Positions 12,373 through 53,742 of a DNA stretch of 64,000 nucleotides are shown one piece after another. The notes beneath the pieces were generated by a model. The model ran no database searches. It saw only the letters and a list, made by a program, of their open reading frames with translations, and was not told where the DNA came from. Location: the IMG/VR virus record IMGVR_UViG_3300029448_000015, positions 1-64,000 of that record; one strand, written 5' to 3'. Position 1 is the first letter of the stretch, and each line of letters begins with the position of its first letter. The DNA comes from a virus. The position numbers and the translations under genes are program-made.

Positions 12373-13243
12373 TGGCTAACACCTTAAAATTTTGTTCTTG
12401 TACTTTAGGTTCTTTAACTACTTTCGTTAAAAACACTGGGCCTCTAGCATAGTTAAAGACTCTTAAATTAGGGTAACAATGATGTTTAAACTCACAATAA
12501 GAACACCCTATTGCTAATTTTCTATTTCCTAATTTACCTTCAGGGACATCTTCATAACAAAATTCTTTTGGTTCTGATTTACTAACTACTCTTTTAATAT
12601 GTTCAATCTGTTCTGCAATGTCTCCCTGAAGATTCTCATACATAGGATCTTTTTTATCTTTCAAGTCATGTTTTAAATAAGTAATGTGTCCATTCTGTTT
12701 ATCCATCGCTAACCAACCAAATTCAGTTTCATTCTCTGAATAGGCATAAGCTTTTATTTGTCCTATGTAACCAAAAGGATCGTCTTCAGCTACTTTTCTA
12801 TCTTTAAATTTTTTAAAACCAAATACTGAAGCTGATTTAACGTCAGTTAAGACACCATCTATCTTACAGTCCATAGAACCCTGAACACCTCTAACTTCAC
12901 AACGCTTTTGTTCATCAGTTACTTTATGTCCAGACATTCTAGTTAAAAACAAAAGCATTTCTTCTATGAGATGTCCGTACATAAATTTAAGTAAGGTGTA
13001 AGGCTGTAATTCTTCTGAAGGAGTTTCGTGGTATTTATTCCAAATGTATTTATCAGGTCTGCCAATTAAAGACATACGGAGTTTTCTTTTATCTTTATTA
13101 CGATCAACTAAAAATTGATTTCGCATTAACTCTTTAACTGATTCACCAAACAGTTCTATATTTTTTTCTATGTCTATTTCATCAGAAGTTTCTTTTGTAG
13201 AAAGAAGACTGTATATGTCTTCTACTAATGTGTCTGTTCCCAT
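12362..13243 (-). CDS. Cas4-like PD-(D/E)xK exonuclease
   Basis: LRMS.IG, GHL.E, G.MDC.IDG...DVKSAS, CSYCEFK..C. Homolog at 49179-50027. Confidence 0.85.
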   Translation of the reverse strand: MGTDTLVEDIYSLLSTKETSDEIDIEKNIELFGESVKELMRNQFLVDRNKDKRKLRMSLIGRPDKYIWNKYHETPSEELQPYTLLKFMYGHLIEEMLLFLTRMSGHKVTDEQKRCEVRGVQGSMDCKIDGVLTDVKSASVFGFKKFKDRKVAEDDPFGYIGQIKAYAYSENETEFGWLAMDKQNGHITYLKHDLKDKKDPMYENLQGDIAEQIEHIKRVVSKSEPKEFCYEDVPEGKLGNRKLAIGCSYCEFKHHCYPNLRVFNYARGPVFLTKVVKEPKVQEQNFKVLASEF

Positions 13244-14949
13244 GAGTCCCCCACTTTATATTCTCCGTCCAATGGACATTTTAAATTAAAACGATTACCT
13301 GCTGCTCTAATACAGCTAACTGCAAGCTTACCAAATTCTTCTGCTTTTTCTTCACTAACTTCAGATTGAATTTCATCGTGTATATTACCAACAAATTTAA
13401 AATCTATTCCCCAAAGCTTTGCATATTCATCCAACAGTACCAAAGCTTTTTTCATTACTAATGCACCTGCTGATTGTAGTAATGTATTTAATGCTGAGTG
13501 TTCTGAGCGTACAAAAAGCTGTCTCCCGTCTAACCCTTTTAGTGTTCCCTTTGATCTGACCTTTTGTACAACTCTGTCTCTAAGCTCTTTAAGTGACGGG
13601 ACACGATACAAAAATTGTTCTCTAAGAAATCTTCCATCCCCTTTGCTTCCTCCAACCACTGAACCAAGTCTTTCATCTCCTGCTCCGTACAAGAAGGCAT
13701 AGATAAAAGTTTTTGCTGTATCTCTTGATTTAAGTCCTGCAAGCTTTTGATTAAGGGAGTGTATATCTCCGTTAATAATTTCATTAGTGTACCCTTCATT
13801 ATTCATATAGTGGGCTAACATTCTCAGTTCTAAACCAGAGGCATCAACTCCGACTACTTTGTACCCTTCTTTAGCAATCCAACAAGAACGACATTCTTTC
13901 CCGTAAGGTGAATAGACTGCGGGGACTTGAGCCATATTTGGTTTAGAATGAGTAAATCTGCCAGTAACTGCACCATTAGTATTTACATACCCATGAACTC
14001 GATTGTCTTTATCTGCTACATCTAACCAACTTTGTACCTGCGCTTTTCTCTTTTGAATGGTAATGTATTCAGCAATCAGTTTAGCTTCTGGTATATCAAC
14101 ATTAGCTAACGTAGATTCATCTACAATAGGGTGATTATTATCTGTAAATTTATCAGGTTCCCATCCTGCTTTTTGTAAACAAACTGCTATCTGTTGCCTA
14201 GAAGATAAATTAAAGGGGCGATATTCTATCCTGCAAAAGTCCCCAGAAACAGTCTGCCAATCGTCACCTAAGAACTTTAAACCTACCTTACTAAACTCAT
14301 TAGTATTCTTTTTAATCTTTGGAGTAATGACTTTGATAAAAGTAAACATAGGTTTAAATGTTTTATGCACCTCATCTTCTATTGCGTATAGCTTCTCCTT
14401 AAATTCTGCTACTAAGGAAGTCGCTAAAGAGTGATCCAACAACCACCCATTGTTAATTTGTTCTTTAATTATGGACTGTACTTTGTGTTCTAGCTCGATG
14501 GAATCAGGATTAAATTCCCTTAACTCTAATTCTAATTTTTTTAGAACTTGCTCTGTAACTGCGACATCTTGCTCACAATATTTAATCATCTCACAAGATA
14601 ATTTTTCCCATTCATTATGCGAACCTTTAGGAAAGTTTAGTCTTTCTCCCCAAGCACGTAAGCTATGCCCTCCTTCTCTGGATGGGTTTGCTAGTCGAGA
14701 CAATACAAGACTGTCTAGTAATTGATAGGATGCCAGATCTACATTCCAAAGTTTCTGAAGAACAGGGAAATCAAAGGCAATGCCATTATGAGCAACAATA
14801 GTATCAACTTCGACAGTCGCTAAAGCAGCTTTAAATTCTGCTTCAGAATAAACTGTAGGAAATAGATTGGATGAACAACACCATATTCTTGTAGGTGTCA
14901 GCCCATCAGTTTCTATGTCAAGAATTAATGTGTTTAGTAATAAGTTCAT
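13225..14949 (-). CDS. polA: Family A DNA polymerase (T7-like, Tyr762 type)
   Basis: DIET exonuclease motif, DASGLELR (motif A), KTFIYAFLYG (motif B), HDE (motif C). Confidence 0.95.
   Translation of the reverse strand: MNLLLNTLILDIETDGLTPTRIWCCSSNLFPTVYSEAEFKAALATVEVDTIVAHNGIAFDFPVLQKLWNVDLASYQLLDSLVLSRLANPSREGGHSLRAWGERLNFPKGSHNEWEKLSCEMIKYCEQDVAVTEQVLKKLELELREFNPDSIELEHKVQSIIKEQINNGWLLDHSLATSLVAEFKEKLYAIEDEVHKTFKPMFTFIKVITPKIKKNTNEFSKVGLKFLGDDWQTVSGDFCRIEYRPFNLSSRQQIAVCLQKAGWEPDKFTDNNHPIVDESTLANVDIPEAKLIAEYITIQKRKAQVQSWLDVADKDNRVHGYVNTNGAVTGRFTHSKPNMAQVPAVYSPYGKECRSCWIAKEGYKVVGVDASGLELRMLAHYMNNEGYTNEIINGDIHSLNQKLAGLKSRDTAKTFIYAFLYGAGDERLGSVVGGSKGDGRFLREQFLYRVPSLKELRDRVVQKVRSKGTLKGLDGRQLFVRSEHSALNTLLQSAGALVMKKALVLLDEYAKLWGIDFKFVGNIHDEIQSEVSEEKAEEFGKLAVSCIRAAGNRFNLKCPLDGEYKVGDSWEQTH
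13539..13784 (-). CDS. Candidate nested gene in +1 frame of polA (81 aa, helical)
   Basis: SD-like GAAGGG 7 nt before ATG; same ORF with GAGGAG in phage B polA (50629-50880). Confidence 0.55.
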   Translation of the reverse strand: MKLLTEIYTPLIKSLQDLNQEIQQKLLSMPSCTEQEMKDLVQWLEEAKGMEDFLENNFCIVSRHLKSLETELYKRSDQREH

Positions 14950-15484
14950 TGATAGGGGTCAAGTCTCGAATTAGTACGCCATAAGTATCATTTACAAATT
15001 TAAAAGAGAGTCTATTTGGATCTCGTTCTCCCTTCTCAAAAAAATCCGCTTGATTGTAAAAGTCTTCTTTTAGCATAAACCCTAATAACCAACACTTCGT
15101 TAAATCCTTAGTGACTCTAGTAAACACATAAGCATCACAATTTTGTTGCGTATTAAAAGCAGATACTAAACAGTTGTAATGAGGCATAGGTTTAACATTT
15201 GTAACGGAAGATTTAACGTCTAATTTATTAATACTTTTTCCTTTTGAGTCTTCAACTTCTTCTATAAGAATGTCCCAATCATAACTATTGTTCCACTTTA
15301 CAGATACTCTATTGTCTGCAAGATATTTATAAACGACTCCTTCCCCTATAAAACCATAAATGTTACCTGCACCTTCAGTAAGACTATTCTTTAATGTCCC
15401 CATTGTTTCAGATTTTTCTGAGGCAATGTCTATGATGTCCTGAGAAACAGTTACTTCTACAATGTCAGCAAGTTTAAAAGTCAT
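14918..15484 (-). CDS. Hypothetical protein, restriction-endonuclease-like (PD-(D/E)xK) fold
   Basis: G.IGE...YDWDI...LDVKS pattern. Confidence 0.55.
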   Translation of the reverse strand: MTFKLADIVEVTVSQDIIDIASEKSETMGTLKNSLTEGAGNIYGFIGEGVVYKYLADNRVSVKWNNSYDWDILIEEVEDSKGKSINKLDVKSSVTNVKPMPHYNCLVSAFNTQQNCDAYVFTRVTKDLTKCWLLGFMLKEDFYNQADFFEKGERDPNRLSFKFVNDTYGVLIRDLTPINELITKHINS

Positions 15485-17132
15485 CTGAATTATCCCCAGT
15501 TGGTTTTTGTGTCTCCTGCATCCTACCTATTTCTTGATCGTACTTTAAGTAAGTCGCTGGCCCTGTTAAACCAGTGTATCTATTTTTTAATACTCTAACT
15601 GTTGTTACATTTCGTATATGTTCGGACTCATTTTGTTGATCTCGTTCTAATCCAATCACGATGTCCGATAACTGAGCAATAGCCTGAGATCCTCTTAGCT
15701 CACTAAGACTAATCCTACCTCCATCTTCATGCGCTGTTCCGTTAGATCGTCTTAAATGAGACACTAAAAACAATCCAATACCTAACTCCTGCACTAAAGA
15801 TCTGAGTTTAGTCATAATGGCATCAATGTTCTTACGCTCATCTCCTCCTTCCTGCGAGGAAACAACAATAGATAAATGATCTAAAACAATCCATTTGCAC
15901 TCCAAAGCTTTAGCCATGTATCTAACGTGAGACATTAAACTGTCTTCATTAGTCGATCCCCAGTGATCTAGGAGATAAAATCTGCCTGTTCCTAAAGTTG
16001 AATCCCAGTAAGGTTTAAAGTCTTCTGTATCTGTATCCTCGTCAAGATGAAGAGGTTTATTAGCAGCCATCGACATGATACCCAGTGCTGTTCTAGTAAT
16101 GGATTCCTCTAACGCCAATACACCAAGTTTATCTTCAGTCTCTGTAAAGAGATGGTGCTGTATTTCTCTAACCAAATGAGACTTACCCATGCCACTACCT
16201 GAAGTAACAGTAACTAACTCAAAGGGTCTAATTCCTTTTGTTAATTTATTCAACCCTCCCCACGGATACGGGATACTACTAATCTTTCTATCGCTAAGTA
16301 ATGTGCTCCAAGTTTCTTCTCCTGCAATAATCCCGTCTGGGCGGTACTGTTTAGCAGCCCACCAACAACTAACAAAATCCTTAATGCGATTCGCCATTAA
16401 CATTTCGTTAGCGTCTTTCATTGGTAACGTACAGATCTTTAGTTTGTTGGGACTGAATAAATCTTTAACGGAATCTAGTGCGGTTTTCCCTGCTGAATCA
16501 TTATCGAAACAAAGCACTACCTGTTCGTAGGATTCCTCCAACCATTTTAAATTCTCCTGCAATTCTTTCTTTGCTGCTTGCGCTCCATTGCGTAAAGAAA
16601 CTACATCCCATTTCCTATCAAACATTTCACTAATAGAAAGTGCATCTAGTTCCCCTTCACAAATAGTTATAAATTTCCCTCCACCAACAGCGCAAGTCTG
16701 GTGTCCAAAGAGTCCTAAATCTCTGTTCTCTCCTGAAAAAGAAAATTGTTTATCCGCTACATAGCGAGTCTTAACTGCTAGTTCCTGTAGGGATTCTCTG
16801 GAATAGTAAGGGTAATGGTGTTTATGGATTTCACCTGTAGAGGAATACTCTACTCGTACATTAAATTTTCTACAGGTTTCTTCCGATACCCTACGTGTTT
16901 GGATTTCGGCTATAACTCCTGACATTTCGTTTTTTTCTCCTGCAAATCGTTGGTAATTCGTCTGTTTTGTTAGTTCCTCATTTGTTGCGGGTTCAAAATA
17001 ATTGCAACCGGAGGAAAAACACCAAGCATGTCCATCACTATAACGTGCTAAGTTATTGGTGCTGTTACAGGACGGACACGCCTCATGTCTAACAAACACA
17101 CTCTCAGTGTTTGTTGACTCGTTCATTGGCAT
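15474..17132 (-). CDS. DNA primase-helicase (T7 gp4-like)
   Basis: CPSC zinc finger, EGELDA TOPRIM, FDND, GSGMGKS Walker A, LDHL, LRGS, KNRYTG. Confidence 0.95.
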   Translation of the reverse strand: MPMNESTNTESVFVRHEACPSCNSTNNLARYSDGHAWCFSSGCNYFEPATNEELTKQTNYQRFAGEKNEMSGVIAEIQTRRVSEETCRKFNVRVEYSSTGEIHKHHYPYYSRESLQELAVKTRYVADKQFSFSGENRDLGLFGHQTCAVGGGKFITICEGELDALSISEMFDRKWDVVSLRNGAQAAKKELQENLKWLEESYEQVVLCFDNDSAGKTALDSVKDLFSPNKLKICTLPMKDANEMLMANRIKDFVSCWWAAKQYRPDGIIAGEETWSTLLSDRKISSIPYPWGGLNKLTKGIRPFELVTVTSGSGMGKSHLVREIQHHLFTETEDKLGVLALEESITRTALGIMSMAANKPLHLDEDTDTEDFKPYWDSTLGTGRFYLLDHWGSTNEDSLMSHVRYMAKALECKWIVLDHLSIVVSSQEGGDERKNIDAIMTKLRSLVQELGIGLFLVSHLRRSNGTAHEDGGRISLSELRGSQAIAQLSDIVIGLERDQQNESEHIRNVTTVRVLKNRYTGLTGPATYLKYDQEIGRMQETQKPTGDNSDDF

Positions 17133-50040: not shown

Positions 50041-50373
50041 TTATTTCTTGTGATGTTTTATAAAATGAAATCCTCCTTTTGCAGAGGGTCTTAATGCAAC
50101 AACACCTAATTCTTTTTGTATCTCTGAGCGTTTCTTGGGCTTATAATTAGTTTTAACATCTATAAATTTAATTTCTCCTGTATCTGAAATAGCAATTAAA
50201 TCTATAGGGCCAGTACATTCACTGTTTTTAAATACTTTAAAATTATTTTCTATTAACCATATAACAGCTTTATACTCAGTAATATCTCCTATAGAGCAAG
50301 TAGATAGTTTACTTGAAGGTTCAGTAATCTTAGTGAGTTTCACTCCAGTTTTTCCCAACCTTATACTCCCCAT
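50041..50373 (-). CDS. Small PD-(D/E)xK nuclease (possible free-standing homing-type endonuclease)
   Basis: GD.TE..A..WL....F.VF.N....GPIDLI.......DVKT. Confidence 0.65.
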   Translation of the reverse strand: MGSIRLGKTGVKLTKITEPSSKLSTCSIGDITEYKAVIWLIENNFKVFKNSECTGPIDLIAISDTGEIKFIDVKTNYKPKKRSEIQKELGVVALRPSAKGGFHFIKHHKK

Positions 50374-52072
50374 CTAAAGGACATCTAAGCTTTAAAAGCT
50401 CACCTGCTTGTATAATACATTCTACTCCTAACTTACCTACAGTATCAGCCATATCTTCTTTTACTTCTATTTGCCATTCATCATGAACATTAGCTACAAA
50501 ATGAGCATCTATATTATGTAACTTTTCATTTAAAAGAATTAAAGCTTTCTTCATTACAATAGAACCTGCTCCCTGTAGTAAAGTATTCAAAGCTGAATGT
50601 TCACTTCTAATTATTAACTTGCGTCCATCTAATGCTTTAATGAATCCTTTCCGTGCTTCTCTGCTAACTCTTGTTTTAAGATCATTGAATGATGGGAGAT
50701 TATTAATAAATGATTTTCTAAGGTGTGCACCAGTACGTTTAGTTCCTCCGAGAATCTCCCCAAGTCTTGAATCTCCTGCTCCGTAGAGTAATGCATAGAT
50801 GAAAGTCTTTGCCTGATTTCTTGATTCAAGCCCTGCAAGTCTTTGATTAGTGGAGTGTATGTCTCCATTAACGATTTCATTTACATACTCCTCATCATTC
50901 ATGTAGTGAGCTAACATTCTTAATTCTAATCCACTAGCGTCTACACCAACTAATTTATAATTAGGTTTAACAATCCAACAAGATCTACATTCTTTACCAT
51001 ACTTACTATACACACTAGGAGTTTGTGCTAGGTTAGGATTTCTATGGGTCATCCTACCAGTAATAGTTCCATTATGATTTACAAACCCTCTAACTCTATT
51101 ATCATCTTCTACATCAGATAACCAAGAATCTACTTGGGCTATTCTTTTTTGGAGCATTAAAAACTCAGCTAATATTTTAGCTTCTTTAATATTTTTAATA
51201 GATGCTAATATTTTTTCATCTACTTTAGCTTGTCCGGTAGGCGTAAATTCTTTTGGTTTCCATCCTAAATCTTGTAGACGTTCACCAATTTGTTTTCGTG
51301 AACCGGGATTAAATTCTGTTTCTATTACTCTCGTAATAAAAGTTTGTTGTTCAATTAAATTAAATTCTTTATCTGTTAATCGTACATTAGTACCATAATT
51401 AGTCTTACCTGTTTTTAATAACTTTTTAAGTTTATTATGGCGTGGGAATATTTTTAATACTTCTTTAGCAGGTAAAAATACTTTTCTTATTTGTCTTTGA
51501 ATCTCACTCATTCTTTCATTTAAAGTAGCAACTAACTTCATAGCTTCTTCTATGTTAAAAAGAAAACCATAGTTTCTTTGTTCATTCATAATCTTAGCTA
51601 CTGCGTGCTCTATCTCAACACTTTGTCGAGAGAACCCTAGAGATTCTTGCTTTAATCTTTCATAGACTTTGTAATTCAATAAGACATCTTGTTCGCAATA
51701 CTTCAGCATATCAGGAGTAAACTTACTGTATTCATGAAAATCTATTTTGTGACTCTTTAATATATACCCCCATCTTTCTAACCCATGTCCCCCTTCTCTT
51801 ACTGGATTAAAAAGACGGGATAAAACTAATGTATCTACTATTATTTTATTTGATAAATCTATAGAGGTAAGATTTTTTATTACAGGTATATCATATCCTA
51901 TAATGTTATGACCAATTAAAGTACCTGCCTCCATTAAAGCAGAAAGCCCTTGTTCTAATTCAGAAGGGCCATAAGATTTTTGTTCTTGAGTAGAGGTGTC
52001 TAAAATAGAAAGACACCAAAGTTTAGTAGCTTCTATGCCATCTGTTTCTATATCAAATACTAAAGATTTCAT
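50330..52072 (-). CDS. polA: Family A DNA polymerase (T7-like, Tyr762 type)
   Basis: FDIET, DASGLELR, KTFIYALLYG, HDE. Confidence 0.95.
   Translation of the reverse strand: MKSLVFDIETDGIEATKLWCLSILDTSTQEQKSYGPSELEQGLSALMEAGTLIGHNIIGYDIPVIKNLTSIDLSNKIIVDTLVLSRLFNPVREGGHGLERWGYILKSHKIDFHEYSKFTPDMLKYCEQDVLLNYKVYERLKQESLGFSRQSVEIEHAVAKIMNEQRNYGFLFNIEEAMKLVATLNERMSEIQRQIRKVFLPAKEVLKIFPRHNKLKKLLKTGKTNYGTNVRLTDKEFNLIEQQTFITRVIETEFNPGSRKQIGERLQDLGWKPKEFTPTGQAKVDEKILASIKNIKEAKILAEFLMLQKRIAQVDSWLSDVEDDNRVRGFVNHNGTITGRMTHRNPNLAQTPSVYSKYGKECRSCWIVKPNYKLVGVDASGLELRMLAHYMNDEEYVNEIVNGDIHSTNQRLAGLESRNQAKTFIYALLYGAGDSRLGEILGGTKRTGAHLRKSFINNLPSFNDLKTRVSREARKGFIKALDGRKLIIRSEHSALNTLLQGAGSIVMKKALILLNEKLHNIDAHFVANVHDEWQIEVKEDMADTVGKLGVECIIQAGELLKLRCPLDGEYKVGKNWSETH
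50629..50880 (-). CDS. Candidate nested gene in +1 frame of polA (83 aa)
   Basis: GAGGAG 7 nt before ATG; C-ending polA codons concentrated across the overlap; homolog in phage A. Confidence 0.6.
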   Translation of the reverse strand: MKSLMETYTPLIKDLQGLNQEIRQRLSSMHYSTEQEIQDLGRFSEELNVLVHTLENHLLIISHHSMILKQELAEKHGKDSLKH

Positions 52073-53742
52073 AATTCAAACTCATCATTATCATCATTAT
52101 CATCTAAGAAAACTTCAAGTAATCTCCCTGTAGTTTTGTCATATCTTAGATGTGCAGCCATACCAACATCTCCAGTGTATCTAGACTTTAATATTCTTAA
52201 ATGTGTAGTTAAAGCTTCAACTGGATCATCAGCTTGCTGATTTCTTTCTAAAGCTATAACACAATCTGATATCTGTGCTATACCTCCAGAGCCTCTTAGA
52301 TGACTAAGCCCTACAGTAGCTCCATTCTCATGTCCTCTATTACCTTCTAGACGTTTTAAATGAGAGACTAGTAAAACACCTGCTCCAGTTTCTTCTACTA
52401 TCTTACGGAGATCAGTCATCATTCTATCTATTAATGCACGTTCATTAGTTTGTTCAGCACTGGCAGATACAATCATTTGTAAGTGATCTAAAATAATCCA
52501 TTTACAATCACAACCTACAATCATATATTTTATTTTGGCTAAGATGTCATCAAAGTCACTAGCTCCAAAATGTGCATGAACCCACATTCTATTTTTATTA
52601 TTACCACCTAATACTTTTTGAGCTAACTTTTCATAATTCTCCTGACCATATTCATCTCTAATATGTTCTATATCTAATTTTTTATTAGCTTCTATAGATA
52701 GAATACCATCAGCAGTTCTTGTCCAATCTTCTTCTAGAGCTACAATACCAAGATTGTCTTCAGTTCTAGTAATAAGCCAGTGTTCTATTTCTCTAATAAT
52801 ACTTGTCTTACCTAGCCCTGTACCTCCAGTAAATGTAACTAACTCTCCTTGTCTAAGACCAAATAATTTTTCATTTAAACCCTGCCAAGGGTAAGGAATA
52901 GAATCTTTCTTTTCACGTTTAAATAACTTATCAAAGTTATCTGATATGTTTAATACTCCAGAAGGAGTGTAGATACTTGAAGCCCACCAAGAACTTACAT
53001 ATAAATTATGTAACCCTTGGCGTAGCATATCATTAGCATCTTTATACTCTTCAGGCATTTGAAGTATCTTTGCTTTGCCGGGAGTAATTAACTTAGCTAC
53101 TGCTCTAGCAGCTTTTCTACCTTCCTTATCATTATCAAAGGAAATAATAATAGTTTGAAACTTTTCAATAAATTCTAAGTTAGCTTTGAAATCTCTTTCG
53201 GCCCCTGCAGCACCATTCTTAATTGATACTACTGGATACTGACTACCCATTAATTCATAAGCAGCCATTGCATCACATTCACCTTCAACTACTGTTAGAA
53301 ATCTACCTCCTTCTTGGCATAGCTGTTGACCAAAGAACCCTGTACTTCTACTATCACCTTCCCAAGCAAAGTTTTTAGGATCAGTGCCTATAGTCTTTCT
53401 AACTTTATAACCTGAAATTTCATTTGCGGTATAGTAAGGATAGTAATGTTTAACTACTTCACCATCTTCTTTAATGGCTTTAACTCCATACTTCTTAGCA
53501 GTTTGTAAGCTAATAGATCTATCAGTTAGTTCTATAAACTCACCTTCAACAACATTAACTTTATTATTTTTATATTGTTTAAAGTCTGCTACAGAGTTAT
53601 CTCCATTCATTGATTCCTCATAATTTTTAAATCTTGTATTACAAGAAAAACAAAATGCAGAACCATCATCATTAATTCCACAAGCATCACTACTTGCACA
53701 ATCAGGACTAGGACAGGGTTGATGTCTTTTTATAAAAGCCAT
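52069..53742 (-). CDS. DNA primase-helicase (T7 gp4-like)
   Basis: C..C zinc finger, EGECDA, FDND, GGTGLGKT, LDHL, LRGS. Confidence 0.95.
   Translation of the reverse strand: MAFIKRHQPCPSPDCASSDACGINDDGSAFCFSCNTRFKNYEESMNGDNSVADFKQYKNNKVNVVEGEFIELTDRSISLQTAKKYGVKAIKEDGEVVKHYYPYYTANEISGYKVRKTIGTDPKNFAWEGDSRSTGFFGQQLCQEGGRFLTVVEGECDAMAAYELMGSQYPVVSIKNGAAGAERDFKANLEFIEKFQTIIISFDNDKEGRKAARAVAKLITPGKAKILQMPEEYKDANDMLRQGLHNLYVSSWWASSIYTPSGVLNISDNFDKLFKREKKDSIPYPWQGLNEKLFGLRQGELVTFTGGTGLGKTSIIREIEHWLITRTEDNLGIVALEEDWTRTADGILSIEANKKLDIEHIRDEYGQENYEKLAQKVLGGNNKNRMWVHAHFGASDFDDILAKIKYMIVGCDCKWIILDHLQMIVSASAEQTNERALIDRMMTDLRKIVEETGAGVLLVSHLKRLEGNRGHENGATVGLSHLRGSGGIAQISDCVIALERNQQADDPVEALTTHLRILKSRYTGDVGMAAHLRYDKTTGRLLEVFLDDNDDNDEFEL

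Follow-up and report, generated by a model that had tools for sequence, protein, structure and literature searches.

The question raised by this locus is whether a stretch of viral DNA that already encodes part of a DNA polymerase encodes a second protein in another reading frame. The locus is found in the virus record IMGVR_UViG_3300029448_000015, of whose 72,476 bases the first 64,000 were analyzed here (positions 1-64000, referred to as the window); they contain two sets of T7-like podophage genes, denoted phage A and phage B. A first-pass annotation of the window had pointed to an 81-codon open reading frame (ORF) in the +1 frame of the phage A DNA polymerase gene (polA-A), overlapping motif B and preceded by a Shine-Dalgarno (SD)-like GAAGGG 7 nt before its ATG, and to an ORF at the same position of the phage B polymerase gene (polA-B) with the same start, the same SD spacing and nearly the same stop; the pair had been interpreted as a genuine overprinted gene. 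Both ORFs were confirmed (Table 1), and stop codon depletion, conservation of SD and ATG, and synonymous constraint all argue in favor of this interpretation. The nested ORF is very probably a real protein-coding gene that was created by overprinting within the segment of a T7-like polA that encodes the fingers domain (motif B).

An open +1 frame not produced by chance

The nested ORF of phage A lies at an offset of 1165 nt in polA-A (1 mod 3, i.e. the +1 frame) and spans polA codons 389-470 in the motif B region of the fingers; in the alignment, its counterpart in phage B shares the start column and ends three columns further downstream. In both phages the ORF is located wholly within polA, on the same strand but in a different frame, and covers the polA segment RxxAKTFIYAFLYGAG, which aligns with approximately residues 518-535 of T7 gp5 and which we take to be motif B, the O-helix of the fingers. 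The two polymerases share 52% identity, and the two nested proteins 49%.

The open frame was compared with resampled genes in which the polA protein was kept fixed and synonymous codons were redrawn according to phage-wide usage, according to gene usage, or by permutation within the gene (5000 draws each). The resampled interval contained on average 6.0-6.9 +1 stops and was free of stops in none of the 5000 draws under each of the three schemes, so that codon shuffling, which had been suggested as a check, does not produce such ORFs at this place. For the interval, 6.8 (A) and 6.3 (B) +1 stops are expected and none is observed in either gene; the exact probability of a stop-free interval, calculated by dynamic programming, is 9e-6 for A and 2.5e-5 for B. 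For A, 0.4-1.1% of the draws contained a +1 open run as long as the observed one, and for B 0.04% at most. Chance is excluded as the origin of the open +1 frame.

The switch in codon choice away from NTA inside the overlap, which had been noticed in the first reading, is also statistically supported. Among the Leu, Ile and Val codons of polA-A, 3 of 20 inside the overlap vs 56 of 114 outside are NTA (Fisher p=0.006), and the corresponding values for polA-B are 3 of 18 and 83 of 124 (p=0.0001). The residual NTA codons inside the overlap precede a pyrimidine, with one exception per gene, whose TA opens the stop codon of the nested ORF itself.

A scan of IMG/VR with both polymerases yielded 561 confirmed candidates, 80 loci of which (48-61% identical to A) were kept; together with A and B they form a set of 82 aligned proteins with 44-82% identity, on whose alignment the +1 stops were mapped. 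The +1 stops, for which an inspection of homologous genes had been proposed, are rare in the interval throughout this set: summed over the 82 polA genes, 55 are observed vs 393 expected when the protein and the codon usage of each individual gene are taken into account, and 64 of the genes have none. The model is calibrated, as outside the interval it predicts 3452 stops and 3333 are observed. The nested ORF is kept in 71 of the 82 genes and lacking in 11, and each of these 11 non-carriers contains at least two stops in the interval, at about the expected number (e.g. 5 vs 3.9, 5 vs 4.4 and 7 vs 5.9). In a non-redundant set of 40 carriers (below 85% identity; mean pairwise identity 56%, minimum 44%), the +1 frame contains no stop in 39; for the remaining four alternative frames the corresponding numbers of genes are 0, 1, 0 and 0. 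Two of the loss lineages (L037 and L074) still show 43 and 53 open codons and only two stops, which suggests a recent decay of the nested gene.

Conservation of the start codon and the Shine-Dalgarno sequence

Conservation of the SD had likewise been named as a point to check, and both the SD and the ATG turned out to be kept by codon choice in polA. The nested ORF starts at the alignment column of A and B in 62 of the 71 carriers. The polA residue at this column is Asn in 46, His in 8, Tyr in 6 and Asp in 2 sequences, and its codon ends in T in all 62 (35.0 expected); it is thus always an xAT codon that preserves the nested ATG. All 62 of these canonical-start carriers have an SD core (counted as AGGAG, GAGGA, GAGG, AAGGAG or AAGG) whose end is 7-9 nt ahead of the ATG, and none of the 11 non-carriers has one; Glu codons within the SD are GAG in 75 of 86 cases (31.6 expected). 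As a background, SD motifs precede 27 of 49 gene starts in the window vs 11% of 739 internal out-of-frame ATGs. In the nine carriers with a relocated start, the ATG is located four codons (eight sequences) or eight codons (one sequence) downstream; all nine have their own SD-like motif 6-8 nt upstream, and mostly there is a stop codon directly before the new ATG. These patterns indicate that the nested start codon is under selection.

The same patterns bear on the idea that ribosomes translating polA enter the nested frame by programmed frameshifting. The product would then be a shortened polymerase, consisting of exonuclease and thumb, to which a new helical tail is added, much as dnaX makes gamma. 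SD-like motifs can stimulate frameshifting, as in prfB and dnaX, and some database proteins (e.g. P0042 and P0055) pass from the polA frame into the nested frame, although assembly indels would look alike. In 47 of the 62 canonical-start genes, the six codons ahead of the ATG include a +1 stop, and in 10 of the 62 the stop directly adjoins the ATG, leaving almost no space for a shift site. In addition, the ATG is conserved by codon choice without exception, and where it has been lost it is replaced by a new ATG with its own SD. An upstream-open frame lacking its own start, as in dnaX, is not what is found here, where slippery motifs were not searched for systematically. We consider frameshifting very improbable.

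Synonymous variation and selection on the nested frame

Synonymous variation was measured as the frequency of identical codons at identical residues, observed relative to that expected from codon usage, in the 780 pairs of the 40 non-redundant carriers. This ratio is 1.51 inside the overlap vs 1.08 outside. In windows of 15 codons along polA it amounts to 0.99-1.17 and rises to 1.44-1.66 at codons 391-465, with sharp edges at about codons 388 and 470. Pairs of non-carriers show 1.12 inside vs 1.09 outside, comparisons of carriers with non-carriers 0.97 inside and 1.08 outside, and comparisons of alternative-start genes with carriers 1.37 inside and 1.06 outside. Synonymous variation in polA, which had been proposed as a test of the overprinted gene, is suppressed only across the overlap and only among genes bearing the ORF. 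Taken at the level of aligned sequences, the comparisons demonstrate that selection preserves a single reading frame together with its start codon and ribosome-binding site, and that polA pays for this in its choice of codons.

Synonymous constraint by itself is no proof of coding, and it might also be caused by an element acting at the nucleotide level (an RNA structure, an internal promoter or a replication signal), in which case the ORF would be untranslated, as it would be if it had arisen by chance. Yet stop depletion is confined to one of the five alternative frames and coincides with a conserved ATG and SD; resampling never reproduces the open frame; and non-carriers with the same motif B protein sequence have normal stops and normal synonymous variation. 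Moreover, the predicted RNA fold of the 81 nt around the start is no better than that of shuffled sequences (z -0.02), and a scan for promoters and terminators found fewer sites than in shuffles, both of which count against such an element. An untranslated ORF is hardly credible, and the sequence comparisons have largely refuted it already.

Selection on the product itself was estimated by our own simplified OLGenie-type count in 21 independent close pairs. The dNN/dNS ratio of the nested frame is 0.53 (bootstrap 0.43-0.64) inside the overlap vs 0.71 (0.64-0.77) when this frame is followed through the rest of polA, with intervals that touch at 0.64. Among the polA-synonymous changes, those altering the nested protein (dSN) amount to 0.22 per site inside vs 0.41 elsewhere, and those creating a stop to 0.05 inside vs 0.40 elsewhere. 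The direction of these differences fits purifying selection on the nested peptide and is supportive, not decisive. Throughout the overlap polA is the more conserved partner, as would be predicted for an ancestral polA gene with a more recent nested frame. The motif B protein sequence was compared between carriers and non-carriers, and no difference was found. An independent contig from 2023 across polA shows 12 differences, 11 of which could be classed; 8 are polA-synonymous and all of these are located outside the overlap, which is not significant as only about 1.1 of 8 would be expected inside.

Predicted structure of the product and database searches

Carriers have reading frames of 80-107 codons, corresponding to products of 9-12 kDa. 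The 45 nested proteins that were aligned (75-107 amino acids) are rich in Leu, Glu, Ser, Gln and Lys, with a median pI of 5.8 and a median GRAVY of -0.60; a membrane-spanning stretch or signal peptide was not found in any of them (maximum mean Kyte-Doolittle value over 19 residues, 0.13-1.43). AlphaFold2, run on the 45 sequences, predicts two helices (residues 2-31 and 34-80) forming an antiparallel hairpin with a pLDDT of 89 and a pTM of 0.60; the turn of the hairpin is encoded by the motif B codons, and the codons of the second helix coincide with a variable region of polA. The product is thus predicted to be a soluble, mildly acidic two-helix antiparallel hairpin, in agreement with the helical protein suggested by the first-pass annotation.

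Searches with four nested proteins gave no significant match in Pfam (best match 19.3 bits vs a cut-off of 30) or PHROGs (best E-value 0.057), and Foldseek retrieved nothing from the PDB and BFVD at E <= 0.001. With VIA-align wide, in a comparison that took in known helical hairpins such as WXG100/Esx proteins and the SMC coiled coil, only generic helical hairpins were obtained, with a best Z of 8.3 and with Esx proteins at 7.3-7.4, a range common for helical models. The best score of a feature search in the ESM Atlas (0.89) represents a lead only and no family. A complex prediction for polA and the nested protein, which was run without controls, gave a score of 0.00 and a mark of 0.32 and is no evidence either way.

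A profile search of 1.84 billion representatives yielded 171 hits at E <= 0.001, 20 of which were inspected. Most of these 20 proteins are the same +1 frame of polA, and no clear free-standing homolog was found among them. Three (P0021, P0082 and P0095) run on into unrelated sequence, and seven (P0075, P0111, P0117, P0120, P0121, P0147 and P0149) were left out of the context comparison. Several combine sequence from the polA frame with sequence from the nested frame (e.g. P0042, P0052, P0055, P0070, P0101, P0102, P0106, P0115 and P0116); for six of them (P0042, P0052, P0055, P0070, P0115 and P0116) assembly indels are a simple explanation, though a real frameshift is conceivable. The clusters P0001, P0002 and P0013 were looked up and none of the three is named; P0001 and P0002 derive from contigs of 666 and 511 bases. 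An exact look-up in a collection of 15 billion sequences showed that the nested proteins of A, B and the cultured phages are not present there. Several database proteins of 52-56 amino acids (P0079, P0090 and P0091) begin at Met 29 of the nested protein, a conserved residue encoded at about positions 13698-13700 of the window by the motif B Tyr codon TAT together with the G of the next codon, and a shorter isoform is therefore conceivable.

Distribution and evolutionary history

The nested gene is also present in the cultured Pelagibacter phages HTVC104P and HTVC115P, where it encodes 99 and 107 amino acids and is preceded by AAGGA/AAGGAG-N7-ATG; their GenBank records annotate the polymerase alone at this locus. 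HTVC103P itself was outside the sequences compared. Slicky01, CRP-804, LUZ100, RsoP1EGY, HTVC168P and HTVC200P contain 2-11 stops in the interval, and MedDCM-OCT-S45-C18 contains one stop and has no ATG at the start column.

In a FastTree phylogeny of 92 polymerases all carriers are found in one clade of 84 tips (node support 0.994), whose sister is the Pseudoalteromonas phage Slicky01; neither Slicky01 nor the more distant Autographiviridae have the nested ORF. Fitch parsimony assigns its presence to the base of the clade and counts five losses. The tree suggests a single origin at the base of a marine podophage clade that includes the HTVC103P-type Pelagibacter phages, followed by about five later losses. 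A relocated copy of the gene was sought in five records from loss lineages, and only a relic within polA with 4-5 stops was found; as these records are 18-59% complete, this does not show absence.

A second scan of IMG/VR, with one nested protein as query, produced 487 candidate stretches, 446 of which encode a relative. Eighty loci were kept from these. At every one of the 80, the relative is enclosed by a longer ORF that is in frame with polA; the canonical ATG and SD are present at 76, and the remaining four match only from residue 6-8 onwards.

Two phages outside this pattern were noted in passing. In the Roseobacter phage CRP-143 (L084; polA at 280-2076) the homologous +1 interval is free of stops with no ATG or SD at the usual place, which could be due to chance at 46% GC or represent a differently started relative. 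In the Pseudomonas phage LUZ100 (L087) the terminator T10 annotated in GenBank (1565-1664) is located inside polA, at about codons 474-507, near the 3' part of the interval that holds the nested gene in the marine clade.

Proposed translation of the nested gene and points that weigh against it

If the nested ORF is a gene, ribosomes would initiate on the polA messenger at the internal SD and ATG, both built from polA codons, and translation would run to the +1 stop about 250 nt downstream. Because initiation would be internal to the polA messenger, the product would presumably be made whenever polA is transcribed, alongside the replication proteins.

Several points weigh against the reading as a protein-coding gene, or call for caution. 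A contig from an RNA library (a marine metatranscriptome, 100% identity) spans positions 13225-13590 and extends only some 50 nt into the 3' end of the nested ORF. Carry-over of DNA might account for this contig, and with the start of the nested gene outside, it is uninformative on the nested frame. The sequences compared are related, so that the 62 of 62 and 71 of 82 cases are not independent, although pairwise polA identity is still as low as 44%. At the product level, the signal of selection is modest; even in the control the ratio falls below 1, and the bootstrap intervals just touch. Per-column pairwise identity in the overlap is 0.43-0.90 for polA vs 0.24-0.56 for the nested protein, and because polA is more conserved throughout the overlap, conservation of the nested protein is partly inherited from it. 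Confidence of the AlphaFold model may be inflated, as the alignment is constrained by a second frame. The five lineages without the nested gene indicate that it is dispensable in some settings, and no family, fold match or partner favors any particular function.

Some of these points would suit a situation in which the act of translation matters and not the protein, with internal initiation tuning polymerase synthesis or messenger stability and the peptide being a by-product. The nested protein evolves fast (0.24-0.56 identity per column), selection at the product level is only moderate, neither a family nor a partner was found, and the gene was lost in five lineages. A by-product, however, needs no approximately 80 open codons running to nearly the same stop at 44% identity; the polA-synonymous changes that alter the peptide are halved over the whole overlap and not in the start region alone; and the fold prediction is confident and uniform. 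We regard this explanation as improbable.

Possible functions

For a translated and functional nested protein, our guess is that it most likely acts by binding another protein. The first-pass annotation had thought of a host-enzyme inhibitor or a polymerase cofactor. By analogy with the small early and middle proteins of T7-like phages, the partner might be a host factor, which we put forward as a tentative candidate only. The replisome of the phage is a more doubtful candidate, and the partner may also be something different from either. We think it unlikely that the hairpin is a dedicated partner of the polymerase, e.g. a clamp-like or helicase-coupling accessory that replaces the host thioredoxin used by T7; if this were true, enzyme and cofactor would be physically inseparable in recombination, and the protein would be an unrecognized replisome subunit of a highly abundant group of ocean phages.

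The T7 genes 5.5, 5.7 and 5.9 are small accessory genes adjoining the T7-type polymerase gene, and several small proteins from the replication region of T7-like phages bind host proteins. They resemble the nested gene in encoding small proteins expressed together with replication genes, and this is the analogy behind the guess of a host factor. Unlike the nested gene they are free-standing, and the likeness rests on position, not on sequence or fold. In LUZ100 the gene following polA is annotated in GenBank as 'Similar to phage T7 Gp5.7'.

Comparison with known overlapping genes and significance

To our knowledge, long out-of-frame embedded genes have rarely been documented in tailed double-stranded DNA phages. 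A comparable case is Rz1 in Rz of phage lambda, which is likewise a small +1-frame gene wholly inside a larger gene of a tailed double-stranded DNA phage and has its own ribosome-binding site. Rz1 is an outer-membrane lipoprotein that cooperates with the Rz product in lysis, whereas the nested polA protein has no signal peptide or membrane segment and the gene containing it encodes a replication enzyme. An embedded lysis gene, encoding either an Rz1-type lipoprotein or a phiX174 E-type membrane protein, was considered as well and does not agree with the hydropathy values given above (maximum 0.13-1.43; GRAVY -0.60).

In phiX174, gene E inside gene D is also an internal overlap in which a gene of about 90 codons arose de novo in an older gene, revealed by codon usage and reduced variation, as described in a review of viral overlapping genes (PMC8227390). 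E acts in lysis as a membrane protein, and phiX174 has a tiny single-stranded DNA genome, for which compression is usual. The nested polA gene, in contrast, belongs to double-stranded DNA phages whose genomes measure tens of kilobases and show ordinary gene spacing, and its product is predicted to be soluble. In hepadnaviruses a second gene, that of the surface protein, is overprinted on a polymerase gene, with selection on both frames; these are animal viruses with a reverse transcriptase, the overlap extends over the spacer and catalytic domains for hundreds of codons, and there is no homology (PMC8227390).

The first-pass annotation knew of no described equivalent, and this agrees with what was found. 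No description of a nested polA gene was retrieved by searches of literature listings and abstracts, and none of ten GenBank phage records inspected annotates it; nothing equivalent came from Pfam or PHROGs either. The accessible text of the HTVC103P preprint (10.1101/2019.12.14.876532) contains neither 'overlap' nor 'nested' and mentions no such gene, although its supplementary annotation tables might list extra ORFs, and the accessible parts of the above review do not describe a nested polA gene. The comparative evidence is unusually complete, and as far as it can be judged from sequences, the locus is a real, conserved and unannotated overlapping gene.

Hundreds of marine phage contigs, and cultured isolates as well, thus carry a conserved gene that is missing from their annotation. 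According to the preprint, HTVC103P-type pelagiphages are among the five most abundant groups in most marine viromes (10.1101/2019.12.14.876532). The motif B segment of polA serves as a viromics marker and as a basis of biochemical inference, and dual coding distorts substitution rates there. Given a single origin that can be dated, a start codon that has moved and five losses independent of one another, the locus represents a good model for gene birth by overprinting. Furthermore, the nested gene is testable, since hosts and phages are available in culture and the design of polA-synonymous knock-outs is feasible.

Genomic setting

The features of the two loci are compiled in Table 1. The nearest solved structure to the polA-A product is that of T7 DNA polymerase (E 3e-87).

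Table 1. Features of the polA loci of phages A and B (coordinates refer to the window)
Feature	Position	Strand	Description
polA, phage A (polA-A)	13225..14949	-	574 aa; family A, T7 gp5-like DNA polymerase; contains the nested gene
Nested gene, phage A	13539..13784	-	+1 frame of polA; 81 codons + stop; starts at the ATG conserved across relatives
Upstream in-frame ATG, phage A	13797..13799	-	Would give an 86-aa form (13539..13799); not the conserved start, without own SD
SD-like GAAGGG, phage A	13792..13797	-	7-nt spacer to the ATG at 13784; built from polA codons Glu-Gly
polA, phage B (polA-B)	50330..52072	-	580 aa; DNA polymerase; contains the nested gene
Nested gene, phage B	50629..50880	-	+1 frame of polA; 83 codons + stop
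SD GAGGAG, phage B	50888..50893	-	7 nt before the ATG at 50880; polA codons Glu-Glu, rarer GAG used
Primase-helicase	15474..17132		
Primase-helicase	52069..53742		

In addition to two distinct polA genes, the record contains two primase-helicase genes; it resembles two joined phage genomes, which could be explained by a chimeric assembly or by concatenation. The polA gene of phage A was detected in sequencing runs of marine metagenomes dated from 2013 to 2025.

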